A stretch of DNA of 64,000 bases from Halarcobacter sp. Lineage in GTDB: Bacteria > Campylobacterota > Campylobacteria > Campylobacterales > Arcobacteraceae. Under the pieces are notes generated by a model. That model saw nothing but the letters and a program-made list of their open reading frames with translations. It was not told the origin of the DNA and searched no databases. This document shows, in pieces, positions 48,685-63,880 of this stretch. The first letter of the stretch is position 1, and each line of letters starts with the position of its first letter. Location of the stretch: the NCBI GenBank assembly GCA_963676565.1, contig OY781089.1:2240001-2304000 (forward strand), read 5' to 3'. The position numbers and the translations under genes were made by a program.

Positions 48685-49395
48685 TTATATATGGCAGCTT
48701 AGAATTGATTTATTTGGATCAACAATATACTCATAACCTTGATACATAATATAAAAGCCAAATAAAATTACAAGAATTGAAGCAATATTTATAAATAGAC
48801 TTCTTAATGCCATTTGTTTAAATACTCCAACAAAGAAACCTAAAGAAAACATTGCAGGTAGAGTACTAAGACCAAAAATAAGCATTACAAAAGCTCCCCA
48901 AAGTGGGCTTCCTGTACTAGCTGCTGTAATTGCAAACACATATACAAAACCGCAAGGAAGTAGACCATTAAGCATTCCTAGTAGATAAAAACTAGTCAAA
49001 GTATTTGAACCAATTAAAGATCTAAATGTTTGTTGATAAATAGTAGATTTAGATACAGAATGCTCTAAGGAAGTTAAAAACTTTAGTTTACCACTTAAAG
49101 ATAAACCAACAAGTATCATTAAAACACCTGTTGTTAAAAGTAAAATACCACTTGTCATATTATCAAAAGTAACAACACCGCCTACAAACCCAAATATAAA
49201 TCCAAGTATTACATAAGTAGTTATTCTACCAAAAGAGTATAATACATGGGAGATTGATTGTTTGGTTTTAGTCCACGATGAATCAATTTTTGTACTAGAA
49301 TAAGCGACAACAATTCCTCCACACATGCCAATACAATGACCAAAAGAACCTAAAAAAGCAATTGAAATTATTGTTAGAATACTTACACTTTCCAT
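48685..49395 (-). CDS. DsbD_2/TauE-SafE-like membrane protein
   Basis: GHCIGMCGG and GLLPCGFVY motifs. Confidence 0.85.
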   Translation of the reverse strand: MESVSILTIISIAFLGSFGHCIGMCGGIVVAYSSTKIDSSWTKTKQSISHVLYSFGRITTYVILGFIFGFVGGVVTFDNMTSGILLLTTGVLMILVGLSLSGKLKFLTSLEHSVSKSTIYQQTFRSLIGSNTLTSFYLLGMLNGLLPCGFVYVFAITAASTGSPLWGAFVMLIFGLSTLPAMFSLGFFVGVFKQMALRSLFINIASILVILFGFYIMYQGYEYIVDPNKSILSCHI

Positions 49396-49898
49396 TATTT
49401 ACCTAATAGTTTATTTCTAATTAAAGGGTTTGTTAAATTTTCACCTCTATACATTTTGATTATCATTTCATCAAAGTTAATCATACCCTCTTTTTTATTT
49501 TTATAAGCACCAAATCCATATTCCATTGGAGTATTTGAAGTTTTATCATACCAAGCTTTTCTACCATCTATATATTCATTTGTATCATTTGAAAAAACCC
49601 AGATGACTGCATCTTTCTGAAACTCTATATTTTTATACCATAAAGCTAAACAACCTGGATCATCAAAAAACCATGTTCTTCCATCTGGAGCAACTGCTTG
49701 TGCTGAATGTTTATTTGAAGTAATTGTCATACCACATTGGGTATCTTGGAAATGATTTAGGGTAATATCTACTGGTTTGTGTTCATGATTTCCTTCATGG
49801 ATAACAACCATTTGTTTTTGATTTGACATTGATAAAAAAATACCAACAATAATAAATATTAATACAAATATAGTAATAATAGGTAAAAACTTCTTCAT
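49395..49898 (-). CDS. NosL-like metal chaperone, membrane anchored
   Basis: QCGMTI, FFDDPGCL, TPMEYGFGAY. Confidence 0.75.
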   Translation of the reverse strand: MKKFLPIITIFVLIFIIVGIFLSMSNQKQMVVIHEGNHEHKPVDITLNHFQDTQCGMTITSNKHSAQAVAPDGRTWFFDDPGCLALWYKNIEFQKDAVIWVFSNDTNEYIDGRKAWYDKTSNTPMEYGFGAYKNKKEGMINFDEMIIKMYRGENLTNPLIRNKLLGK

Positions 49899-50035: not shown

Positions 50036-50119
50036 AATATCTAATAGTAACTCTAAAATGTTAATTTTTTGTTAAATCAAGGTTAAAACAATATAATACA
50101 AAAAAATTTAGGATATAAA

Positions 50120-53284: not shown

Positions 53285-53668
53285 TTACCAATTTTTCCCT
53301 TTTCCAGGTCCCATACCTTTGCCCATTCCTTGTCCATTCATCATATTGTTTTTTTGATTTACTCTATTTTGAAATCTAGCTTGTTGATGAATTTGAAGTT
53401 CATTTTTTGAAATAATGCCATCACCATTTGTATCAACATCAGAAAAAGAAGGTGAATTCTTAGCATTCATCATAAGTCTACCTTGTTCTGCTTTTTGAGT
53501 CATTCTTTTTTCTTTTACTGAATCAAATTCAGCAGGACTAATTTGACCATCTTTATTTGTATCATAAGCTGAAAAAGCTACAGGACCAAAACTTGGTAAA
53601 GTTTCAGCAAACATAAATGTTGCACCAAATACCAACAAACCACTTAGAATAATTTTTGAAGTTTTCAT
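53285..53668 (-). CDS. Secreted EF-hand protein
   Basis: DTNKDGQISPAEF and DTNGDGIISKNEL loops; Gly/Met-rich tail. Confidence 0.85.
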   Translation of the reverse strand: MKTSKIILSGLLVFGATFMFAETLPSFGPVAFSAYDTNKDGQISPAEFDSVKEKRMTQKAEQGRLMMNAKNSPSFSDVDTNGDGIISKNELQIHQQARFQNRVNQKNNMMNGQGMGKGMGPGKGKNW

Positions 53669-53764: not shown

Positions 53765-54499
53765 TTAAATTAACCTGTATTCAATAGGAACTCTAATTGT
53801 TATTGTTTTTTGAACTTTAGGGAAATTTGCTGAGGCACTATATATTGCTTCTATTGTGGACTTTTGTAGTAGTTTGTGTCCCTTGAGTGTTTTAACTCTT
53901 TTTATTTCACCAGATTTCGTTAAACAAAACTCCACCAAAACTTTACCCTCAATTTTAAGTTTTCTAGCTCTTTTTGAGTACATTATATTTTTTTGTATCT
54001 CTTTTTTTATCATATGCAAATGATTTGTTAAAAAATCTTCTTCATAATTAACTACTTTTTTTATAGGAGTAGGATTAATTGGTTTTTTTATTTGTTTAGT
54101 TACTACTTTCTCAATAGGGGTATTTTTAGGCTTATTTATTTTTTTAGGTATATTCTTTACAATCTCTTTTTTTGTTTTTTTAACAATTTTTTTCTTTTCT
54201 ACTTTTTTTACTATTTTCTCTTTTACTTTTGCCTTTACGATTTTTTTGGGTTCAATTTTCCTAGGCTTTGTTATAACTTTTTTAACTTTTTTTTCAACTA
54301 CTAGCTCTTTTGCTTTTGTCTGATTTTCTTGAACTTTTTTTTCAGGTATTGGTTTAACTATTTGAACATAGTTTAATCTAATTTTCTTTTCATCTTTTTT
54401 TTCAGACTGAAATTTTTCAAAAGGATTTGCAAATAAAAAAAGTGTGGCTATACTTACATAAATCAAAACTGTAAGAAAAAAAGAGTTTAAATATCTCAT
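53765..54499 (-). CDS. tonB: Energy transducer TonB
   Basis: N-terminal TM, Lys/Pro-rich linker, YSKRARKLKIEGKV C-terminal domain. Confidence 0.88.
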   Translation of the reverse strand: MRYLNSFFLTVLIYVSIATLFLFANPFEKFQSEKKDEKKIRLNYVQIVKPIPEKKVQENQTKAKELVVEKKVKKVITKPRKIEPKKIVKAKVKEKIVKKVEKKKIVKKTKKEIVKNIPKKINKPKNTPIEKVVTKQIKKPINPTPIKKVVNYEEDFLTNHLHMIKKEIQKNIMYSKRARKLKIEGKVLVEFCLTKSGEIKRVKTLKGHKLLQKSTIEAIYSASANFPKVQKTITIRVPIEYRLI

Positions 54500-54879
54500 T
54501 GTTGTTTCACCGTAACTATTGATATATTTTCAAAACTATTTGATTTTAAAGCATCTAAAATAGATACAAAAACTTCGAATTTAGCATCTTTATCACTATT
54601 TATTAAAATTGGTCTATCTTTTTCTTCCTGTGAAATCTTACTTAATAATTCTTCAACTATTAACTCTTCTTTATCAAGATAAATTTGTCCAGAATCTTTT
54701 ATATAAATACTTAACTCTTTTTTTATTTTTTGATTATCAGCTGAAGTTGCTTTTGGAAGAGATACAGGTATAACACCTTTAGCAATAAAAGTGGATGTCA
54801 TTAAAACTATTGCTAAAAGTACTAAAAGAACATCAATAAAAGGTATTACATTTATTGAATCATATTTCTTGATTTTCAT
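54496..54879 (-). CDS. exbD: ExbD
   Basis: INVIPFIDVLLVLL, LPKA, DKDAKF. Confidence 0.93.
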   Translation of the reverse strand: MKIKKYDSINVIPFIDVLLVLLAIVLMTSTFIAKGVIPVSLPKATSADNQKIKKELSIYIKDSGQIYLDKEELIVEELLSKISQEEKDRPILINSDKDAKFEVFVSILDALKSNSFENISIVTVKQQ

Positions 54880-55285
54880 ATCTGCTTTCCAAAACTTCTG
54901 CGTATCGACTTAAGATATTATAAAAAACCATTGATACAATTGCCACAACTAAACCAACTGCAGTGGCCTTAAGTGCTAGGGCTAATGAACTCATAATTTT
55001 AGTTGCAACAATATCCCCTTCACTCATAGTCATAAAAGTTAACATAATAGCTAATACAGTACCAAGAAGTCCTATATAAGGTGAGTTAGAAGCGATAGTT
55101 CCAATAAAAGTTAAATTTTTTGTAAGTGCTACATCTAGTTGTTTTTTATTTTTAAATTTGTTTACATCAAGTTTTCTATAAAAAAAGAGTCTTTCTATAA
55201 AAAACATTACAGCTATGAAACTCATAAATACAAGTAATGCAATTACACCATAGTCAACTAGGTGTTTTAATAGTTCAATATTCAT
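54860..55285 (-). CDS. exbB: ExbB (short form)
   Basis: TIASNSPYIGLLGTV, ALALKATAVGL. Confidence 0.93.
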   Translation of the reverse strand: MNIELLKHLVDYGVIALLVFMSFIAVMFFIERLFFYRKLDVNKFKNKKQLDVALTKNLTFIGTIASNSPYIGLLGTVLAIMLTFMTMSEGDIVATKIMSSLALALKATAVGLVVAIVSMVFYNILSRYAEVLESRYENQEI

Positions 55286-55341
55286 TTTCTTCTCCTGTAC
55301 AGCATTTTAATTTTATGATAGATGTGTTAATTTTGAGTTAA

Positions 55342-56142
55342 TTACTCTGAATAAAAGTAAGAATCTACTCCCATTATTGCAGCCCCATATGAAGTTGTAA
55401 TTTGAGGATATTTTGGAATAAAAATTCTTTTGCCTAATTCATTTTCTATTGCATTTACTAAACCTTCATTTAAAGCAGGTCCACCATCAAAATATACGCC
55501 CTCTTTTACACCAACTCTTTTTACTAATTTAACAATTCTTTTAGCAATAGAATAATGAACACCACATACAATATCTTCAACACTATGATTATTTCCAAGT
55601 AAGCCAATAATTTCACTTTCTGCAAAAACTGCACAAGTACTACTAACACTTAAAGGTGTGCCTTTGGCTTTGAAATGTATTTCCCCAAGTTTATCAACAT
55701 CAATTTCAAGCTTTAAGGCTACTACATCTAAAAACTTTCCTGTTCCAGCTGCACATCTATCATTCATAGCAAAATTTGTAACATTTCCATCATTATCCAA
55801 AGAGATTGCTTTACTATCTTGTCCACCAATATTTATAATAGTTTTTATCTCTCCATACTCTTTCCCTGCAGCCCTAGCACCTATTGCATTTGCTGTTATC
55901 TCACTAATATTCTCATCTGCTTCTTTATAAAGTTTTCTTCCATAACCAGTAGAAACAGTGTAAACGACATCTTCAGGTGATATTTCAAGCTCTTTTAGTA
56001 AAAGTTCTAAAGTTTCTTGAGCGTATTTATAAAACATACTTCCACTAGCACTAGTTTTTGAACCTATTAAATTTTTATTTTCATCAATTATAGAAATTTT
56101 TATTGATGTTGAACCTATGTCAATCCCTACAAAATATTTCAC
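55342..56142 (-). CDS. HgdC/BadF-type [4Fe-4S] ASKHA ATPase activator (DCCP-reductase-like)
   Basis: GIDIGSTS, STGYGR, IGGQDSK, MNDRCAAGTG, SSTCAVFAESE. Confidence 0.9.
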   Translation of the reverse strand: MKYFVGIDIGSTSIKISIIDENKNLIGSKTSASGSMFYKYAQETLELLLKELEISPEDVVYTVSTGYGRKLYKEADENISEITANAIGARAAGKEYGEIKTIINIGGQDSKAISLDNDGNVTNFAMNDRCAAGTGKFLDVVALKLEIDVDKLGEIHFKAKGTPLSVSSTCAVFAESEIIGLLGNNHSVEDIVCGVHYSIAKRIVKLVKRVGVKEGVYFDGGPALNEGLVNAIENELGKRIFIPKYPQITTSYGAAIMGVDSYFYSE

Positions 56143-57416
56143 TTTTTTACCCTTTTTCTTGTTTTTAAAGACTCTATAAAGGCTTCAATTCTTGTTGTTA
56201 ATTGACCACCTTGACTTGGACTGTAATCACTTTCGATATATAAAATAGGAATACCTTCTTTTTCCATAGCTTCTAAAACACTTCTTTGTTCAGCTTCATA
56301 AACAGTACAACCAGCAAATGCTTGATAGACAACACCATCTGCACTATATGTTTTAACTAAGTCTATAATACGCCGTATTCTGTCATCATTTTTTGTAAAT
56401 ATTGGACATGTACAAGCTTTTAAATACTTATCAGCCATAGAATCAAGCATATCATTTACAAACCACTCATCAACGGCAACTCTATCATTAAACATTCTAT
56501 TTGAACTACAAGTCTCATCTGCAACAATTATCCCATCTGACTCTTCAATTACTATTGGAACTTTATAATTTGGAAAAATAGGAGGAGAACCTGTATAAAC
56601 TATTCTTGGACTAACTTTCCCATTAACAAAAAGGTTTTCATCTTCTCTTTGTTTACACTCTTTCAAAAGATTTTCAACGGCATTAATCCATGAATCAATT
56701 TTGTCAAAAAAGAAAGCATTTGTAACAAAAAACATATCATTTCCACTTATTACAATATTTTTCTTTTTTCTATATTCACAAAGTTTATGATAAAGAGATT
56801 GTGCATAACCAATCTTTGCAATACTTTGTTTTAAACTTTTTTTATTTAGTTTTTTACCAGTTCTTTTTGAAAGATCTATTGAAAATTCTCTGATACTTCT
56901 TCTAAAATACTCTCTACTTATTTCACTTTCTTTAATTCTTGGAAAATCAACATCTACAACTTCATACCCAAAACTTTCAATAGTAACCCCTGCTTTTGTT
57001 TTTTGATCACATGTTGTTGGAGAATATATTAAATGAGGTTTATCAGAAAAATTCCCAGAAGCAAAATGTCCTACTGTTGCACGAACTAAAGGGCATGACT
57101 TTTGTGGCATATAATCACTACCTATTTCATCATCACTATAAAAGCCATTACATAATCTAATAGGAACAGCATCTAAAGCATATATAATCTCACTTGGAAT
57201 TTGAATACACATAATACCTACTTTTAATTTTCCTTCATGAAGTGACTTTTGTTTACAAAATACATTTTCAAATAACCTATAAAAATAATCCATAGCTTTA
57301 ATAGGGTTTTTAAAATCATCTTTTAGAGTATTTATAATTTTGATTGCTTCCATTGCTTTGTGTCTATTTTGTTTTTCCAATGGAGATTCAATTTCATGTT
57401 TTAATTTACTTGTCAT
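56139..57416 (-). CDS. HgdB/FldC-superfamily protein, double-cubane cluster protein (DCCP/YjiM)-like
   Basis: VGIMC..P.E, RLC, CPL, TTCD.K, RIVYTGSP, ETC...R, YLKACTC, DGVV....GC..Y, IESDY, GQLTTRIEAF. Confidence 0.8.
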   Translation of the reverse strand: MTSKLKHEIESPLEKQNRHKAMEAIKIINTLKDDFKNPIKAMDYFYRLFENVFCKQKSLHEGKLKVGIMCIQIPSEIIYALDAVPIRLCNGFYSDDEIGSDYMPQKSCPLVRATVGHFASGNFSDKPHLIYSPTTCDQKTKAGVTIESFGYEVVDVDFPRIKESEISREYFRRSIREFSIDLSKRTGKKLNKKSLKQSIAKIGYAQSLYHKLCEYRKKKNIVISGNDMFFVTNAFFFDKIDSWINAVENLLKECKQREDENLFVNGKVSPRIVYTGSPPIFPNYKVPIVIEESDGIIVADETCSSNRMFNDRVAVDEWFVNDMLDSMADKYLKACTCPIFTKNDDRIRRIIDLVKTYSADGVVYQAFAGCTVYEAEQRSVLEAMEKEGIPILYIESDYSPSQGGQLTTRIEAFIESLKTRKRVKK

Positions 57417-58392
57417 TACTTTCCTTTATATTAGCAATACCCATTCTTTTTTCAAAACCTTCTTTTGTAGACGTAAAAGCTTTTATATTTAAAATATCAA
57501 AGTGTAAAACATCATCTTCAGGACATGCAGCAACGCATTTTAGACATAAAATACAATCATCCCTTAATATATTTATATCTGTTACATTATCAGCTATATC
57601 TTTTATTTGCATATCACAAACAGTATAACAATCACCACATCTAGTACATTTACTACCATCTTTTCTAAACTGAACAATTGAGATTTTTGAAAAGATATAA
57701 TGTAAAGCACTCATAGGACAGAAGAAACAAAAAAATCTTTTTTTAATAAAACTTCCAACAAAAAATAATCCAGCAAAAAATATCCCTAATGATGTTAAAA
57801 GTATTGCTGTTTTACTTGAAAAGTCAATTACCCATTGGGAAAAATCACCACTAAACATAGGTGTAATTATTCTTGCTGGACATATTTTACAAAAAGCTGC
57901 AGACCATTCTGAACCCATTAATCCCACACCCATAAGTAAAGGAAAAACTAAAACTATAAACAAAAATACATATTTTATTTTTGATAGCTTTTCAAATTGA
58001 TTTTGTGAATAGCTTGAATATCTAATACCAATTGATTTTCTAAGTTTTGTCATCCAATCTTGTAGTGTTCCAAAGGGACAAACATACCCACACCAAGCCT
58101 TATTTAAAAAAATAAACCAAAATAAGAAAACAAGAATTCCACTAATTACTGCAATTGAAGCACCACCAAGCAATACTTGAGTTGGCATTGACAATTGGTG
58201 TTGTAAAGGTATTAAATAACAAGCTCCAGCAGTTGTATCATTATAAGGACATGTAAAAATAGGTAGTTTAGAACCAAAATCTATTGCAAAATAACCACCA
58301 TAAATAAATAATACAAAAGTTAATACTTGAATGATATTTCTAAATCTGATTAGATTTACATTATTAACTGTTTTTTTTAACCTACTCAACAT
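57406..58392 (-). CDS. Membrane 4Fe-4S polyferredoxin (NapH/MauN-like)
   Basis: WCGYVCPFG, FCKICP, FCFFCP, CTRCGDCYTVC, CILCLKCVAACP. Confidence 0.85.
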   Translation of the reverse strand: MLSRLKKTVNNVNLIRFRNIIQVLTFVLFIYGGYFAIDFGSKLPIFTCPYNDTTAGACYLIPLQHQLSMPTQVLLGGASIAVISGILVFLFWFIFLNKAWCGYVCPFGTLQDWMTKLRKSIGIRYSSYSQNQFEKLSKIKYVFLFIVLVFPLLMGVGLMGSEWSAAFCKICPARIITPMFSGDFSQWVIDFSSKTAILLTSLGIFFAGLFFVGSFIKKRFFCFFCPMSALHYIFSKISIVQFRKDGSKCTRCGDCYTVCDMQIKDIADNVTDINILRDDCILCLKCVAACPEDDVLHFDILNIKAFTSTKEGFEKRMGIANIKESNDK

Positions 58393-61105
58393 ATCTTGGC
58401 TCTTTAAAAGGATTTGTACGATTTTTTCTAAATCTGTATATTATAAATCCTGCTAATATCATTGTTAAAATTAAAATTGTCAAAGCAAATGCGTAAGATT
58501 CATAATCACTTTTATTTGGATAATAGTATGCTGGATAAGTTAATATGAATTTGTCATTTCCAATATCATGTTCTAAAGTAAGTAAAAATTCCTGTTTAAA
58601 TCTTTTATTATACTCCTCCCAATTTGGGAAATAATCTCTTATAAGAGTTATTTTTGCTATACCATTTTCATCAGTTTTAAAACTTTTTACCCATCCACTT
58701 TGAAGTTTTATTTTAAGTAATGCATTTTTTAATGGTTTATTGTCAAATATAGCTTTGAATCTTAGGGTATCCCCCATACTTATTCTATAAAAAAAGCTAT
58801 CTTCATTTGCATCTTTAATTCTTATCAAGTCAATTCTTGAAACATTTTGATTTAACTCTTTTTTTATATCTTCACTATAGACATCTTCAGTTCCATGCTT
58901 TCCCACTAAAAACTCTAGTTTAGCTACTTTATAATAGTTATTGTCATTTAGTTTTGTTTTCTCTATTGCAAAAAGGTTATAATAACCATTGCCTGGAACT
59001 TCAAATTTGTAAAGGGTTTTGCCCCTTGATTTCTCTTCAATAATATCTTTTTCAGTTTGATTTTTATCAAACACATAAAAGCTAATATTTTTTGTAGGAT
59101 AAAGAGCTTTTTTACCTCTGTTTTCATAGGCTAGATATAGTTTTTTTGTTGGGATAACTTTTTTTGCTGATGGCTTACCTCCACCACCATGCATATGTCC
59201 ACCATACGATTTCTTTTTTGCAGTTGGATCTGTTAGAGACAAGTAAAACTCTTGTTTTGGATTTATAGAAGCTTTTTTACCCCAAGATTTTTTTGGTTTA
59301 AAATCTTCCATAGCTATTTGCATAGCTTTTTGGAAATCAACAACTTTACCACCATATTTTTTACTAAAAACGAAGGCATCTTTTTTGTTTGCAAAGGCAT
59401 ATTTACTAACCCTTGACATAGTACCTTTTTGTCTACTTCCAACTACATAAAAAGCACTTTTTGCATCAATAAACTTTAAAGTAGTTATATCAACTACTTT
59501 TATATCTTTTAAAGCTAGTTTTTTAATCTTTAAATCTTCAGTTAAACAATGAATAGAACAATATTGTCTTGGTTTACCATTAAGTGTAGCACTATGATTT
59601 GTTTTATAAAACATAGGCAAATTCATACCACAAACAACACCGCTAGTTTTATCTTTCCCTTCTTGAACCAAAGTTGCCTTTTTAAAAGGAACACTTTGAA
59701 ACATTTTCTTAGATGAAGAAGAACCATGTGAGTGCCCTCCTCTTTGTTTTGCACCATATTTTGAAAATATATATCCAGTATAAATATTAAGTCCAATATA
59801 AAATAAAATTACAAATGAAGCAAAGAAAAATCCAAATAGCTTTCTTAATTTTGTACTATCAATAAGTTTTATTCTTTTGTAAAGAATAATAAAAGCCCAA
59901 ATTACACCAATCCATTTAAATAGTTTAAAATAATGTAACCAAGCATCACCTCTTTTAGCTAATGGTGCAACATCAAAACTCATTCCAAAAGCTTGAGCAA
60001 AACCTTCAACAATTTTTGTATAATCTTTGATAAAAAACATCTCTAAAGTATGTCCTAAAGATGCAAAGATAAAAAGTGGAATAAAAGCAACACCAAGACT
60101 TGTAAAAATTGAATTAAATTCTTTTTTCAAAACCTTTGAAGCTAAATAAAGCCCTAAAAAAGCTATAGAGACAGTAACTAACAATGCATAAATAAAAGCA
60201 AAGCCACCTGCATATTCAGAAAGATTAAAAAACTCTGCTGTTCTATTCCAAATAAATTCATCAGCAATATTACTTCTATTTAAACCATGGGCAAATCCCA
60301 TAGATACAGGGATAGAAGCAAGGATTAAAATATATGTCCAAATTTCTGCATTTAAAAGTTTTAGCTTAGAGCCTAACTGTTCGGCAGGTTTAGTAAACTT
60401 GAATTTTACAGCTTCACAAGAAGTCGCACAATCCATACATAAAGTACAATCATCTGTTTGATTTTTTTTAGCAAAAGTAAAAGGTTTTAGATTATACTCA
60501 CATGCACTTGCACACTCAAATGTTTTACAATCTTTACAATGGTCTGTATATGTCTCTAATTTGGTAAAAGATAGTTTGTCATATGCTCTTGTAAGTGTAC
60601 CAATTGGACAAATATATTTACAATAACTCATATCTTTATAAATATAATACACAATAAAAGAAAGTAGTGTTAGTACAGAAAACATCAAAGCTGTATTAAA
60701 AGGAGACTTCCAAAAGCCATCAAAAGTATAATAAACTCCCCACCAACCAATCACTAATATGAAAATACCGATATATCTATTTTGCATCCATTTTGGCATC
60801 TTCTTTTTTAAACCTAATTTTGTAATATATTTTCCCATAAAACCATGGGGACAAACGCAACAAAAAATTCTTCCAAAAGATGGTAAAGTAACAACCATAA
60901 ATAAAGCCCAAAAAAGACCCCAAAAAAGTGCACCAGTAAATATATTATCTCTGCCAGGATGAACAAATCCAAAATAAATAGCATAAAAAAATAGTGCTGT
61001 AACAGTTAATCTAAGAATTAATAAAAAACTCTTATTTTTAAATAAAAAACCTAATATTGGTTTACCATAAATATCATTTTTATCACGTTTGATAAAATCT
61101 ATCAT
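58382..61105 (-). CDS. Fusion of a membrane 4Fe-4S domain, His-rich linkers, a NosL-like domain, a DUF4198-like domain and a C-terminal TM
   Basis: FCCVCPHG, CKYICPIG, CKDCKTFECASAC, CTLCMDCATSC; GGHSHG, GGHMHG; VCGM..YCSIHCL..FYVVGS..GTM; KPLKNA...KTDENG. Confidence 0.75.
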   Translation of the reverse strand: MIDFIKRDKNDIYGKPILGFLFKNKSFLLILRLTVTALFFYAIYFGFVHPGRDNIFTGALFWGLFWALFMVVTLPSFGRIFCCVCPHGFMGKYITKLGLKKKMPKWMQNRYIGIFILVIGWWGVYYTFDGFWKSPFNTALMFSVLTLLSFIVYYIYKDMSYCKYICPIGTLTRAYDKLSFTKLETYTDHCKDCKTFECASACEYNLKPFTFAKKNQTDDCTLCMDCATSCEAVKFKFTKPAEQLGSKLKLLNAEIWTYILILASIPVSMGFAHGLNRSNIADEFIWNRTAEFFNLSEYAGGFAFIYALLVTVSIAFLGLYLASKVLKKEFNSIFTSLGVAFIPLFIFASLGHTLEMFFIKDYTKIVEGFAQAFGMSFDVAPLAKRGDAWLHYFKLFKWIGVIWAFIILYKRIKLIDSTKLRKLFGFFFASFVILFYIGLNIYTGYIFSKYGAKQRGGHSHGSSSSKKMFQSVPFKKATLVQEGKDKTSGVVCGMNLPMFYKTNHSATLNGKPRQYCSIHCLTEDLKIKKLALKDIKVVDITTLKFIDAKSAFYVVGSRQKGTMSRVSKYAFANKKDAFVFSKKYGGKVVDFQKAMQIAMEDFKPKKSWGKKASINPKQEFYLSLTDPTAKKKSYGGHMHGGGGKPSAKKVIPTKKLYLAYENRGKKALYPTKNISFYVFDKNQTEKDIIEEKSRGKTLYKFEVPGNGYYNLFAIEKTKLNDNNYYKVAKLEFLVGKHGTEDVYSEDIKKELNQNVSRIDLIRIKDANEDSFFYRISMGDTLRFKAIFDNKPLKNALLKIKLQSGWVKSFKTDENGIAKITLIRDYFPNWEEYNKRFKQEFLLTLEHDIGNDKFILTYPAYYYPNKSDYESYAFALTILILTMILAGFIIYRFRKNRTNPFKEPRYVE

Positions 61106-61114
61106 CTATATACC

Positions 61115-61771
61115 TTATAATGAAATTTTTCCAGCAACAACCATTGAACCAACAAAAATTAGTAATAGTGAAGCAAAAATCTGAATATACTTTGTGTATA
61201 CCTTGAATTGTTCTATTAATCCTTGAAATATTCTTCCAACAATTAATGTATAAAAAATAAAAGGAACTAACACGGCACCTAAGCCAAATAAAAGACCATT
61301 TAGAAATGAAAATAAATATGTTGTAGTGTTTGCACTTATTGTAATCAAAGTTAAGACGGGAACACATGGATTTAAAGAGACTAATGCCCCTATTCCAAAA
61401 ATTCCGAAAGTTCCCTTTGGTTTTTTTGAAGTTGGTACTTTTGATTTGCATTTTGTTTCAACAATTAATGTTGTATAAAGCAATCCTAGTCCAATAAGAA
61501 CAGTAAAACTTCCTAGAATCAATTGAAAAATAGTATTATCATTAAGAATTGATTTTATAAATAATGAACTAGAAAAAGCAATTAAAGATATAAAGATATA
61601 AGTAACTACTCTTCCTAAACTAAATGGTAATACTACTTTTAAAGATGAAACACTTTTTGTAGAATTAGATATTAAAAGTGGAGCCAAAAAAGGCATACAT
61701 GAAAACATGCATGCAGTAGCTCCATATGATAATCCTATCAAAAAAAGTGAGAAAAAAGTTAAACTCTCCAC
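61115..61771 (-). CDS. DsbD_2/CcdA-like membrane protein with conserved Cys
   Basis: ACMFSCMPF, GRVVTY, SLNPCVP; about 6 TM segments. Confidence 0.75.
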   Translation of the reverse strand: MESLTFFSLFLIGLSYGATACMFSCMPFLAPLLISNSTKSVSSLKVVLPFSLGRVVTYIFISLIAFSSSLFIKSILNDNTIFQLILGSFTVLIGLGLLYTTLIVETKCKSKVPTSKKPKGTFGIFGIGALVSLNPCVPVLTLITISANTTTYLFSFLNGLLFGLGAVLVPFIFYTLIVGRIFQGLIEQFKVYTKYIQIFASLLLIFVGSMVVAGKISL

Positions 61772-61786
61772 TATCTTTTTTCTTTA

Positions 61787-63880
61787 TTAAAATTTATATC
61801 TAAGACCTGCATAAAATGCTCTTGGAGGGGCAACTCTTATTGTTGCATCACTCATATCACTTCCATAAGATACATTCACAAATTGATAATAGTTTTTATT
61901 AAATAAATTTGTAATTTTTCCAAAAAGCTCTAAATTATTAGAGATTTTATATTTACCTCTTAGATTAACTACAGCATAACCTGATTGTTTGTATAAGTTA
62001 GCTTCATCTGCATAATAACTACTTTTAGCAGTTATTTCTGGAGACAATACGAACTTTTGATTAACATTCCAATCTAATCCAATATTTATTGTGTGTTTTG
62101 AAGTTCTAGGTACAGTATTGCCATCTAACTCAATTTCAGGTGCGCCACCATCATTTGGATTAATTGAATAATCTTTTAATTTAGCCATTAAATACGTATA
62201 TGCAATATTATATGAAAAAGCATCATTTACTTTTGTATTAACGGCTAATTCAATACCCCTACTTCTCATATCTCCAACATTATCTATTGCTAAATATTCA
62301 TCGTCATCTGTTGACCATAAATAACTTCCAGCTTTTTTACCAATATAATCAACTCTATCTAATTGATAAATTGATAAATCATAGTTTGTATTGTTAAATC
62401 TACCTTTTATTCCAATCTCATAATTGTACGTTTTTTCACTATCTAATTCTGTTGGAATATCAAGGCTTGGATCATCTTGTAAAAGACTTAGATTTCCACT
62501 AATTTGACCAGCAGTAGGTGCTCTAAAACCACTTGAGTAACTAGTATATAAATAATGTTCATCTGCAAAGTTATAATTTAGACCTATATTAAATGAACTT
62601 TCATTATAGCTTGGATCTACATTTAAAGAACTATCCATATGATTCTTATAATCATATGTCAAGTGATCGTATCTATAATTCCCTACAATATTAAGTTTTT
62701 CTGTTAATTTTGATTGTAGTTCTAAATAAACAGCTGCAATATTTTCATCTGTATTACTATCTGATAAAAGAGTCCCAGCAGTAGTAATACCTGTCCATGG
62801 TGATCCATAGGTAACCCTTTGTACAGATTCATTATCCTGTGAGTTTTTTTCTAAGTTTATACCCACCATTGCAGCTATGCTTCCAAAAGATTTTCTATAT
62901 TCTGATTTAAATGTATTTTGAATCCATTTTTCATCATTATTTTTTAAATGAAAAGTGTCAGTACTATCTCTAGATGATCTGCTTGTTGTATCATCTTGAT
63001 ATCTAGAAACAGTTGCCATAAAATTTGAAGTATCATCAATATCATTTGAATAAGTTAAAAATGTTTTAATTAATGTTGTATCATAGAATCCAGCATAAGA
63101 TACCTCATTAAAACTTTTAGGATCATTTATAGCTGCATCAATCCCATGAACACTAGTTCCATCTCCAGACTTTCTTTTTGTATAATCAAGTCCAAAAGTT
63201 AAGTCGCTATTATCATTTAAATAATATTGATATTTTCCATTAACTGACTTGTGATTTAAGTATGCTTCATCCCAATAACCATCTGTATCTCTATATGTAG
63301 CTTGTAGTTGCAGTGAACTATCATCAAAACTTTGATTCGTTCCAATTAAAAATCTGTTAAATCCAAAACTACCTAATTCAGTTTCAAGTTTTGATTCACT
63401 AAGACCTTTTGGTCTTTTTGTTGTAATTACTATAGCACCAGAAATTGCATCATTCCCATAAAGATAACTAGCACTACCTTTAATAACTTTTATTGATTCA
63501 ATATTGTCTAAATCAAGATTTGCCTTTCCAGTAGTTTCTTGAACAGGTACACCATCAATAACAATTGCAACACCAGGTCTTTCACCCATATACATTTGAT
63601 TATCAATACCTCTGATATGTATTTTAACTTTATCATTACCCACATTTGAGGCAGTAATTCCAGGAATCGTATTCAAAATATCTTCAACATTAGTTGGATC
63701 AATTTTTTCTATTTGTTTATTATCAATAATAAAAGTGTTAGATGAACTATTCAATTTTTCTTCATATTTGTCATCAATTGTTGAGGATACAACACTTATA
63801 GACTCTAACTCAACAGCATTCAAACTATTAATCAATATTAATGAAGCTACTAGACTCATAGATATTCTTACTTTAGGCAT
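61787..63880 (-). CDS. TonB-dependent receptor
   Basis: Signal peptide, IHIRG, IESIKVIKGSASYLYG, SGFRAP, NLFNKNY, C-terminal YKF. Confidence 0.92.
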   Translation of the reverse strand: MPKVRISMSLVASLILINSLNAVELESISVVSSTIDDKYEEKLNSSSNTFIIDNKQIEKIDPTNVEDILNTIPGITASNVGNDKVKIHIRGIDNQMYMGERPGVAIVIDGVPVQETTGKANLDLDNIESIKVIKGSASYLYGNDAISGAIVITTKRPKGLSESKLETELGSFGFNRFLIGTNQSFDDSSLQLQATYRDTDGYWDEAYLNHKSVNGKYQYYLNDNSDLTFGLDYTKRKSGDGTSVHGIDAAINDPKSFNEVSYAGFYDTTLIKTFLTYSNDIDDTSNFMATVSRYQDDTTSRSSRDSTDTFHLKNNDEKWIQNTFKSEYRKSFGSIAAMVGINLEKNSQDNESVQRVTYGSPWTGITTAGTLLSDSNTDENIAAVYLELQSKLTEKLNIVGNYRYDHLTYDYKNHMDSSLNVDPSYNESSFNIGLNYNFADEHYLYTSYSSGFRAPTAGQISGNLSLLQDDPSLDIPTELDSEKTYNYEIGIKGRFNNTNYDLSIYQLDRVDYIGKKAGSYLWSTDDDEYLAIDNVGDMRSRGIELAVNTKVNDAFSYNIAYTYLMAKLKDYSINPNDGGAPEIELDGNTVPRTSKHTINIGLDWNVNQKFVLSPEITAKSSYYADEANLYKQSGYAVVNLRGKYKISNNLELFGKITNLFNKNYYQFVNVSYGSDMSDATIRVAPPRAFYAGLRYKF

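Follow-up and report, generated by a model that had tools for sequence, protein, structure and literature searches.

A TonB-dependent uptake operon of Halarcobacter that combines a double-cubane reductase homologue with membrane polyferredoxins: a candidate system for reductive metal scavenging

The double-cubane protein (DCCP) of Carboxydothermus hydrogenoformans is an ATP-driven, nitrogenase-like reductant that has been known since 2018 and is described as having neither a partner nor a natural, physiological substrate that is known (PMC7317905). What might a homologue of this enzyme do when its gene sits in the middle of a TonB-dependent uptake operon? This question is raised by a nine-gene cassette of Halarcobacter sp. 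(GenBank assembly GCA_963676565.1), which lies in a stretch of 64,000 nucleotides (nt) that we refer to as the window (positions 2240001-2304000 of the 3.34-Mb genome, G000:C1; ~25-30% GC over 44-64 kb). All parts of the cassette belong to known families, but the combination itself is not described in the papers that we searched: an archerase-driven double-cubane protein, predicted to be docked on a membrane polyferredoxin, within a TonB-dependent uptake operon that also encodes a fused NosL/DUF4198 protein. The account that we favor, with a confidence slightly short of even, is that the cassette scavenges a metal reductively by a TonB-dependent route, with copper as the likeliest metal and ATP-energized electrons as a boost. 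A preliminary description of this DNA, made from the letters alone, had stated that it knew of no described pathway of this composition, and our literature searches likewise returned no published account of the cassette. A paper on a Sulfurovum enrichment genome, which carries one of the related loci (L081), mentions only a generic TonB system (PMC4674564).

The DCCP homologue and its operon

All nine open reading frames of the cassette are on the minus strand, and their coordinates, order and close packing are exactly as the preliminary description had reported (Table 1). From the receptor gene to tonB, the first two spacings are gaps (15 and 9 nt) and the next three are overlaps (11, 11, and 4 nt, the last between the reductase and ATPase genes); a 56-nt gap then precedes exbB, followed by overlaps of 20 and 4 nt. 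Because the genes overlap or sit so tightly, because their synteny is kept across 78 loci, and because the core recurs in contigs with GC contents of 0.38-0.63 (see below), we consider it very probable that the nine genes form one functional unit. Scans for promoters and terminators gave no usable signal, with 66 promoter-like sites versus 64.3 in shuffled sequences and 5 terminator-like sites versus 2.9. Four oligo-dT RNA runs of a host organism contained just 3 reads that fit in part, at 90-95% likeness.

The best NCBIfam model for the reductase is double_cubane (NF040772), but its score of 316.4 bits is below the cut-off of 350, and therefore the protein appears to be a sister branch of this family rather than an equivalog; judged by its sequence, it most likely works like DCCP. 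Models for dehydratases and benzoyl-CoA reductases score much lower (HadC 79 bits and BzdN 78, with HadC, BzdN, and BcrC spanning 53-79 versus cut-offs of 421-700). A phmmer search of PDB sequences was led by the C. hydrogenoformans DCCP at E ~1e-54 (7YYL_C, E 7.3e-54; 6ENO_A, E 2e-53), far above BzdN, HadC, and MbdN. When the protein was aligned to the Carboxydothermus structures, the cluster Cys lined up 7/7, with each of the seven motif Cys facing a Cys of 7yyl_C/6eno_A. The spacing C70-X18-C89-X18-C108-X27-C136-X166-C303-X33-C337-X32-C370 matches the published signature CX19CX18-19CX29CX166-170CX32-34CX32C (PMC7317905), except that two of the spacers are 1-2 residues shorter. Residues C70, C89, C108, C136, C303, C335, C337, and C370 are invariant in 70/70 orthologues and account for all of the Cys motifs that had been quoted previously. 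The adjoining ATPase scores well above the TIGR00241 cut-off of 125.4 bits (Table 1), and its cluster Cys C130 and C170 are invariant in 72/72 orthologues. Thus, the DCCP/DCCP-R architecture that the preliminary description assigned to this pair is well founded.

As in the C. hydrogenoformans DCCP/DCCP-R system (6ENO, 7YYL; PMC7317905, PMC9351452), a single HGD-D subunit with the 7-Cys motif is encoded next to an HgdC-type ATPase, and the C-terminal helix that docks DCCP-R in that system is conserved in the cassette reductase. Unlike its characterized counterpart, the cassette reductase possesses one more invariant Cys (C335) and an acidic patch (311-333) that is likewise invariant, and it is always encoded behind a NapH-like membrane protein within a TonB uptake operon. 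A two-subunit 2-hydroxyacyl-CoA dehydratase or benzoyl-CoA reductase is ruled out, because only two HGD-D genes exist in the genome, both of them single and each followed by its own activase. The cassette also contains neither a second dehydratase subunit nor a CoA-transferase, as had been noted before. The second HGD-D gene (C1:1959975-1961330) encodes a paralogue that is 30% identical to the cassette reductase and scores 453.8 bits with NF040772.

The presence of this paralogue bears upon the idea that the cassette might handle a non-metal redox cargo, such as selenium or sulfur species in need of low-potential reduction. A tight co-occurrence of SelD and DCCP has been described (10.1101/2022.07.06.499078), the present genome has two Sec-type SelD genes, one of them beside the paralogous DCCP, and the hosts are sulfur-cycle bacteria. 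However, it is the paralogue, not the cassette DCCP, that adjoins SelD, and the NosL and DUF4198 domains of the cassette bind metal cations. We also know of no TonB receptors for selenium or sulfur species, and overall we regard a non-metal cargo as very improbable.

Several additional observations concern DCCP relatives outside of the window. The second DCCP/DCCP-R pair (C1:1958723-1964030) is a true NF040772 member and is divergently oriented from a SelD gene that contains an in-frame TGA; genes for transglutaminase-like, MerT-like, and HMA (MerP-like) proteins come after the pair. Such a setting fits Haft's SelD-DCCP link and suggests that DCCPs act on imported thiophilic elements. Both SelD genes (C1:1992297-1993211 and 1958723-1959640) have one in-frame TGA each, indicating that the selenocysteine-type SelD is duplicated. 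In our phylum sample, many genomes of a single genus (g11) encode a 388-397-aa HGD-D homologue of ~30% identity (e.g. G096:C1:174758-175822) with a single in-frame TAG at a seemingly constant place, which could be a conserved stop, a boundary of two genes, or a recoding site.

Table 1. Features of the cassette and its surroundings, with positions counted from the first letter of the window
Feature	Position	Strand	Assignment or remark
TonB-dependent receptor (TBDR)	61787-63880	-	Plug + TonB_dep_Rec_b-barrel
DsbD_2 membrane protein	61115-61771	-	PF13386, 63 bits
907-aa fusion protein	58382-61105	-	Fer4_5 + NosL by Pfam; DUF4198 by fold
NapH-like polyferredoxin	57406-58392	-	Fer4_5/Fer4_10; NapH models 76-81 bits, under cut-offs
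DCCP homologue (HGD-D protein)	56139-57416	-	HGD-D 304 bits; 425 aa
DCCP-R / HgdC-type ASKHA ATPase (archerase)	55342-56142	-	BcrAD_BadFG 186 bits; TIGR00241 226.6 bits
ExbB	54860-55285	-	ExbB2; TIGR02805 144.8 bits, over cut-off
ExbD	54496-54879	-	ExbD_2 120.2 bits vs cut-off 123.45
TonB	53765-54499	-	TonB_C
Operator-like direct repeat ATTAACT-N4-ATTAACA (one mismatch)	55325-55342	-	40 nt before exbB
Exported EF-hand protein	53285-53668	-	EF-hand matches + signal-peptide-like N-terminus; 96 nt after tonB
167-aa protein of no known family + second DsbD_2 gene	48685-49898	-	DsbD_2 165 bits

Conservation of the operon and its shorter relative

The conservation of the cassette was surveyed in 24 genomes of the same genus, in species-representative genomes, and in 400 high-quality genomes sampled evenly across the phylum. 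DCCP orthologues of 81-94% identity were found in 4/24 same-genus genomes, and gene order is kept in all four, one of which has a contig that ends inside the receptor gene. The species-representative genomes yielded 78 loci at 66-83% identity, all from Campylobacterota and spanning Arcobacteraceae, Sulfurimonas, Sulfurovum, Sulfurospirillum, and Campylobacteraceae, while 17/400 genomes of the phylum sample have orthologues of at least 56% identity, distributed over six families. DCCP-R adjoins DCCP in every locus with at least 900 nt of downstream sequence (73/73), as does the NapH-like gene in every locus with at least 1 kb upstream (62/62). The other genes were counted in the 52 loci that have no less than 7 kb of upstream sequence: DsbD_2 occurs in 51 of them, ExbB in 37, and TonB in 13, and 48 have a receptor of 30% identity or more; the C-domain of the fusion protein is found in 47, its N-domain in 43, and a match spanning the NosL part in 24. 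The position of ExbB varies among the loci. All of these loci are kin and were selected by their DCCP, which means that the counts are not independent; the spread over families, together with the reshuffled positions of exbBD, DsbD_2, and the receptor, argues for selection on the linkage. We also scanned metagenomes with the NapH-like alignment and considered the best 80 of 327 relatives, at the low-identity end of which are 20 contigs with GC contents of 0.38-0.63 that clearly belong to other lineages. The core of DUF4198-like, NapH, DCCP, DCCP-R, and DsbD_2 genes is complete in 15 of these 20 contigs and is cut by a contig end in the other 5, with a receptor, ExbB, or a TBDR+PepSY_TM pair often nearby. 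Thus, the linkage of receptor and reductase, which was a premise of the preliminary description, extends far beyond the genus.

Two neighbors of the cassette vary from locus to locus. An orphan HAE/AcrB-type RND permease (~1026 aa) directly follows DCCP-R in 32/78 loci (e.g. L027, L040, L044, L092) and is absent from the present locus. It is closer to multidrug than to CusA/CzcA models, is sometimes located between exbD and tonB, and has no adjoining adaptor or outer-membrane gene; such a permease may recycle a ligand. The EF-hand gene that follows tonB in Table 1 is also kept beside the cassette in L017, L020/L041, and L068, and an EF-hand gene occurs in the distant locus L169 as well.

A shorter version of the locus exists in the relative G010, which has no DCCP orthologue. 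Its regulator is 96% identical to that of the cassette genome, and the syntenic place contains a response regulator-histidine kinase pair and an identical operator, together with genes for a receptor of 700 aa (26% identical), a 52%-identical homologue (491 aa) of the fusion protein's polyferredoxin half, exbB-exbD-tonB, an EF-hand protein, and a dGTPase, but no DsbD_2, NapH, DCCP, or DCCP-R. Polyferredoxin homologues were found in 21/24 same-genus genomes: 4 have the long fused type (open frames of 779-911 aa), whereas the other 17 have a shorter polyferredoxin (open frames of 472-616 aa) and no DCCP orthologue. In at least 10 of these 17, no more than ~8 kb separates the shorter gene from that of the regulator. 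Since G010 has a receptor and polyferredoxin without DCCP, and since a shorter polyferredoxin likewise occurs without a DCCP orthologue in 17/24 same-genus genomes, the base system appears to be a receptor plus a membrane polyferredoxin, with the capture domains, DsbD_2, NapH, and DCCP/DCCP-R as an add-on module. Such a base system shares its logic with the haem-based FoxA/FoxB system and with CrtA/CrpH of Bordetella (PMC13038864).

Polyferredoxins, capture domains and predicted docking of the reductase

The fusion protein comprises an N-terminal membrane polyferredoxin (Fer4_5, two 4-Cys motifs), a NosL domain, a DUF4198 domain, and a C-terminal transmembrane (TM) anchor. NosL is recognized by Pfam (PF05573, E 4.7e-16), while DUF4198 is weak at the sequence level (19.5 bits versus the Pfam cut-off of 34). 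An AlphaFold model of residues 470-907 (27-row alignment, pLDDT 79.5) was compared with ~48,000 solved chains. Residues 617-862 match the DUF4198 fold, with Zcp (9mhi_A; Z 16.8, root-mean-square deviation [rmsd] 2.7, 189 residues aligned) and a Ni-bound protein (9gcb_C; Z 15.5), and residues 478-601 match NosL (7og7_A; Z 11.9, rmsd 2.5, 115 residues aligned, 29% identity), whereas the next unrelated match has a Z of 7.9. Foldseek agrees with this result, and a family profile run against the PDB also recovers NosL at the sequence level (E 1.9e-7), in an alignment that pairs the CGM and CS motifs. In this model, the periplasmic part folds as NosL plus DUF4198, with the DUF4198 assignment coming from the fold. 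The polyferredoxin Cys are invariant in 48/48 orthologues of the fusion protein, while the NosL Cys C492, C516, and C520 are present in 28/48.

The topology of both polyferredoxins was predicted from hydropathy and the positive-inside rule. It places the NosL and DUF4198 domains of the fusion protein in the periplasm, between a TM helix and the C-terminal anchor, and the ferredoxin domains of both proteins in the cytoplasm. The fused NosL resembles the Cu(I) chaperone of N2O reductase (7OG7, 7OSF) in fold and in its CGM/CS motifs. DUF4198 proteins are described as periplasmic Zn or Ni capture proteins (PMC12663993, PMC12537917): Zcp binds Zn, and in vitro also Co, Ni, and Cu (PMC12663993), while an Ideonella member binds Ni and has TonB receptors and NikR as gene neighbors (PMC12537917). 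Just before its DUF4198 domain, the fusion protein has an H-x-H motif (H637, H639) that may be the positional counterpart of H29/H31 in Zcp (9MHL); an H29A/H31A/H142A mutant of Zcp is listed among the solved structures. Unlike NosL and the DUF4198 proteins (Zcp 9MHL, IsDUF4198 9GCB), the fusion protein unites both domains in one membrane-tethered chain behind a polyferredoxin. The cassette also differs from NosL systems in having no nosDFY genes, and 8/18 cassette genomes have no NosZ. Because the NosL and DUF4198 folds are present, we think that the cassette probably serves metal uptake.

The NapH-like protein has four predicted TM helices and a cytoplasmic C-terminus with two 4-Cys cluster motifs. 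All 16 of its Cys are invariant in 66/66 orthologues, and the predicted topology puts the invariant C48, C58, H65, C168, and C171 in its two periplasmic loops. It shares Fer4_5 motifs, 4-Cys cluster motifs, and a predicted cytoplasmic Fe-S domain with the CcoG/NapH/NosH/NosR family, a group that includes CcoG, described as a cupric reductase (cited in PMC13038864), and NapH-like proteins proposed to pass electrons across the membrane (10.1101/2021.01.07.425746). A true NapH was rejected, as the two NapH models give 80.6 and 76.2 bits versus cut-offs of 234 and 213 and the cassette has no napG or napA; the protein is NapH-like in architecture only. It also scores far below the NosR cut-off, is accompanied by no NapG, and contains no flavin-binding or FixG_C part, and it differs from the whole CcoG/NapH/NosH/NosR group in its extra invariant periplasmic Cys/His and in having DCCP as its predicted partner.

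The DsbD_2 protein has six predicted TM helices, and its C21 and C25 (in an SCMP motif), C108, and C136 (in an NPCVP motif) are invariant in 54/54 orthologues, many of which also match PF02683 DsbD. The source names of its homologues include CcdA, TauE/SafE, and 'urease accessory protein Ur...', which we take to be UreH. CcdA/DsbD transporters are characterized by two essential TM-helix Cys, each within a motif of the Pro-Cys type. No thioredoxin-like partner for the DsbD_2 protein is encoded in the cassette. Judged by sequence family, it may be a thiol-electron carrier of the CcdA kind or, just as well, a metal permease that resembles UreH.

We predicted the complex of the DCCP (23-row alignment) and the NapH-like protein (16 rows) from custom-built alignments, and the resulting score is to be read as model confidence. 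The ipSAE was 0.66 (runs of 0.68, 0.66, and 0.66) versus 0.02 for the best control, and the mark used is reached by 116/157 solved complexes versus 2/215 mismatched pairs. The runs share at least 91% of their contacts, with a partner pLDDT of at least 80. In the predicted interface, NapH residues 247-258 (within the cluster motif C249-C259), 285-291, 310-323, and 119-130 meet DCCP residues 310-334, 345-355, and 199-210, with the DCCP side adjoining the ligands C303 and C337. The DCCP patch formed by D311, V315, D316, E317, M323, Y331, L332, and K333 is invariant in 23/23 cassette DCCPs (6 of them from distant contigs) and differs both in the C. hydrogenoformans DCCP and in the paralogue. To our knowledge, there is no solved complex of this DCCP-polyferredoxin kind. 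In the solved DCCP complex, DCCP-R binds at the dimer axis via the C-terminal helix, the D400-D405 loop, and N111 (PMC9351452), and from this comparison we infer that DCCP-R and NapH would use different faces of DCCP.

These models bear upon the direction of the electrons. The preliminary description had them flow from the membrane polyferredoxins to the reductase; the predicted docking upholds a link between reductase and NapH-like protein, whereas the direction does not fit as well. Since the docking avoids the DCCP-R face and since the short form has a receptor and polyferredoxin but no reductase, outward flow would fit better than inward flow, and we tentatively propose, at somewhat worse than even confidence, that electrons flow outward from DCCP. 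In the opposite arrangement, cargo would cross the inner membrane via DsbD_2, the membrane half of the fusion protein, or the RND pump, and DCCP would reduce it in the cytoplasm, with the polyferredoxins either feeding electrons (e.g. from quinol) to DCCP-R/DCCP or only anchoring them. Several points speak for such inward flow: the C. hydrogenoformans DCCP is described as a terminal catalyst for small molecules (PMC7317905), the cassette DCCP with its 425 aa resembles that 'class I' enzyme of 421 aa and has retained the seventh Cys close to the cluster, and the second DCCP pair beside SelD and MerT/HMA transport genes implies that DCCPs may act on imported elements. The predicted docking at NapH would be compatible with a substrate hand-over as well. 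However, NapH is predicted to sit on DCCP and not on DCCP-R, the usual site of electron entry (PMC9351452), quinol is a poor donor for an archerase, and the cassette encodes no recognized inner-membrane chelate importer. In addition, the capture domains are periplasmic, and the short form exists without DCCP. For these reasons, we consider the inward arrangement unlikely.

A putative regulon, the cargo and a candidate mechanism

An exact direct repeat, ATTAACA-N4-ATTAACA, is located on the minus strand 148 nt before the receptor gene, just outside of the window (window-equivalent positions 64028-64045), in addition to the one-mismatch copy before exbB (Table 1). An 11-bp repeat period is typical of OmpR-type regulators, and genes for an OmpR-type response regulator and a small kinase are situated just upstream of the cassette. 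Across 158 related loci (2.09 Mb), we counted 50 exact repeats, while composition alone predicts ~0.6 for the whole 3.34-Mb genome. As many as 42/50 lie no more than 250 nt upstream of, and are co-oriented with, a gene start (receptor 27, exbB 10, tonB 3, and DsbD_2 2). With up to one mismatch allowed, the repeat is found at 51/71 receptor starts and before exbB at 36 sites in the 158 loci, and it also precedes exbB in the cassette-less relative G010. The cassette genome contains 4 exact and 10 one-mismatch repeats in total. The conserved two-component system probably switches on the operon through this repeat.

Other genes behind the repeat broaden the picture. A second DsbD_2 gene, which encodes a protein only 29% identical to the DsbD_2 of the cassette, follows a one-mismatch repeat at 50059-50076 of the window, with an exact repeat at the same place in G010. 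Its operon immediately precedes genes for two TonB receptors, btuFCD, and the B12 salvage cluster, and its homologue in G183 (44% identical) follows the repeat and precedes COX1 (haem-copper oxidase subunit I). The genes at 48685-49898 are therefore likely, from their sequence context, to be co-members of the regulon outside of the cassette. The repeat precedes a free exported NosL paralogue in the cassette genome, G014, and G003, at ~45 nt, and in G208, as well as in G002 in the opposite orientation. It is also found before a membrane cytochrome-c pair in the cassette genome, G183, and G208, before the regulator's own orthologue in G208, and before further receptors, one of them with PepSY_TM. 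Single occurrences precede nosZ in G221 and PCuAC-SCO1 in the cassette genome. A 43%-identical homologue of the EF-hand protein follows an exact repeat in G183, and it is possible that the EF-hand protein belongs to the same regulon.

Two further sites in the cassette genome stand apart from the uptake genes. The cytochrome-c site (C1:2168582-2171871) encodes a 72-aa PP0621-family protein (with a weak metallothionein-like match) and proteins of 124, 445, and 398 aa; the 445-aa membrane protein, which has a C-terminal cytochrome c domain, and the 398-aa protein, which is of no known family, recur behind the repeat in G183 and G208. An exact repeat also precedes C1:2863400-2869415, which encodes a multihaem cytochrome of 706 aa, an FKBP isomerase, a 4Fe-4S dicluster protein, and a membrane subunit of the NrfD type, an uncharacterized respiratory-type complex that may belong to the same regulon.

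What does the receptor import? It has a signal peptide and its best NCBIfam match is TonB-siderophore, at 215 bits below the cut-off of 223.5; its nearest solved chains are YncD and a PQQ transporter (E 1e-25 at best), and neither the family nor the PDB matches assign a substrate. Across the loci, receptor orthologues are 32-86% identical versus 66-94% for DCCP, which indicates that the receptor diverges much faster. The receptor, the TonB complex, and an inner-membrane electron-transfer protein are encoded in one conserved operon, which is the layout of TonB-dependent reductive uptake systems.

The preliminary description had pointed to a B12 salvage cluster close to the cassette and had suggested corrinoid reduction as one role. 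This cluster is indeed present at ~32-48 kb of the window, together with btuCDF and a BtuB-like receptor, and it lies ~5 kb away from the cassette. Co(II)/Co(I) reduction needs a very low potential, in keeping with an ATP-driven reductase that would reduce or demetallate imported corrinoids. Rfam, however, finds no family in the window or in the 15 kb upstream, nor any cobalamin riboswitch among 18 distant loci totalling 223 kb, where the scan returned one c-di-GMP-I riboswitch and one RNase P only. Moreover, the receptor scores 136 bits on the BtuB model versus 247 for the BtuB-like gene of the window, no CbiK is found over the cut-off in the genome, and most of the 78 loci have no B12 genes among their recurrent neighbors. 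The DsbD_2 gene beside the B12 cluster shares the cassette's operator, and its G183 homologue precedes a haem-copper oxidase gene. Consequently, the corrinoid role found no support, and we consider a corrinoid or cobalt system highly improbable.

Reductive metal release, also among the earlier suggestions, is the role that fits best. With respect to the metal itself, copper is our best guess because of the NosL domains, the co-regulated NosL paralogue, COX1, nosZ, and the precedent of Bordetella, where a TonB copper importer paired with a membrane reductase has been described (PMC13038864); we would call this an even bet. Should the metal instead be Ni, Co, Zn, or Fe, the copper-type members of the regulon would be coincidental or secondary. 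Such a metal would suit the Ideonella DUF4198 protein, which binds Ni and is encoded near TonB receptors and NikR (PMC12537917), and Zcp, which binds Zn (PMC12663993), as well as the one DsbD_2 homologue that is named a urease accessory protein (UniRef) and the several NiFe hydrogenases in the genome. Iron in particular might be indicated by the TBDR + PepSY_TM pairs of the distant loci, which are typical of ferric-siderophore reduction, and by TonB-siderophore being the best family of the receptor. On the other hand, no reduction is required for Ni, Zn, or Co(II), copper is likewise handled by PepSY_TM proteins (PMC13038864), and the NosL domains plus the co-regulated NosL paralogue speak for copper. 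A search of the 15-kb stretch with the promoter region also gave no match to the 19-nt Fur box consensus within 3 mismatches. We therefore view a metal other than copper as a minor possibility, marginally ahead of inward electron flow.

The closest known logic is that of CrtA-CrpH of Bordetella pertussis (PMC13038864) and FoxA-FoxB of Pseudomonas, which likewise join a receptor and an inner-membrane electron-transfer protein in one operon. Those systems are described as using an imported metal complex reductively and as being switched on by metal starvation. In the cassette, the reductase is Fe-S based (Fer4_5 polyferredoxins) rather than a di-haem PepSY_TM protein, with no sequence relation between them. 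It also differs in its fusion to capture domains and, in the long form, in its predicted coupling to an ATP-driven reductase. We propose the following scheme for reductive metal scavenging. From the families and folds, the receptor, energized by ExbB-ExbD-TonB, would import a metal complex as far as the periplasm. Electrons would then pass through the fusion protein's N-terminal half and the NapH-like protein, from the cytoplasmic [4Fe-4S] domains of both to Cys/His sites at the periplasmic face, where the cargo would be reduced and its metal released. The membrane-tethered NosL and DUF4198 domains, again going by their families and folds, would capture the metal, and the DsbD_2 protein may either import the ion or keep periplasmic thiols reduced. 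Lastly, DCCP/DCCP-R would sit on the cytoplasmic Fe-S domain of the NapH-like protein and use ATP to lift electrons to a very low potential, such that a cargo irreducible by quinol- or ferredoxin-level electrons might become usable. In this final element, DCCP/DCCP-R would be an ATP-driven electron booster rather than a soluble catalyst: mounted on a membrane polyferredoxin, it would send electrons of very low potential through the inner membrane to strip a metal, probably copper, from complexes that are out of reach of ordinary periplasmic reductases. Taken by itself, we put the odds of this reading well below even.

A number of points weigh against this scheme. DUF4198 proteins bind Zn, Ni, Co, and Cu in vitro and thus are not metal-specific, the NosL domain occurs in only about half of the loci (by both the continuous match, 24/52, and the Cys, 28/48), and the receptor is devoid of Cys and unlike OprC. 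Cu(II) is readily reduced, which leaves the need for an ATP-driven reductase unexplained; a very stable copper chelate as the cargo is speculation. NosZ is present in 10/18 cassette genomes versus 149/401 overall, a weak association that is confounded by family. In all known relatives, DCCP-type proteins are terminal catalysts and not relays, and the complex score is a model confidence built on the custom alignments. Concerning the regulon, six control words of the same composition give 0-2 exact and 6-13 one-mismatch sites genome-wide, compared with which the 10 one-mismatch repeats show no excess and the 4 exact ones a slight excess only; single one-mismatch sites may thus arise by chance, leaving only recurrence across genomes to count. 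PCuAC-SCO1 was accordingly dropped as a regulon member, with no site within 1.5 kb upstream in G014 and G003 (0/2 relatives). The kinase has only ~11 residues between its two TM helices and hence no sizeable periplasmic domain. Finally, regulator orthologues of 69-97% identity occur in 22/24 same-genus genomes, most of which have no cassette; with the regulator near-universal in the genus, the cassette is an accessory member of a wider regulon.

The cassette gives the orphan double-cubane enzyme class its first testable physiological setting, metal scavenging, and its conserved genomic and predicted physical link to a polyferredoxin, capture domains, and a TonB importer makes the role of DCCP experimentally tractable. 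The conserved operator and its two-component system likewise offer an entry point to a regulon that has not been described. Next to the periplasmic metal reductases that use haem, the cassette would stand as an Fe-S based, ATP-boosted variant. If DCCP/DCCP-R does act as an electron booster, an [8Fe-9S] protein would for the first time have a physiological role, and transmembrane reductive metal release energized by ATP would have its first example. For the sulfur-cycle Campylobacterota, our results suggest a route by which these bacteria gain scarce, tightly bound trace metals at oxic-sulfidic interfaces.

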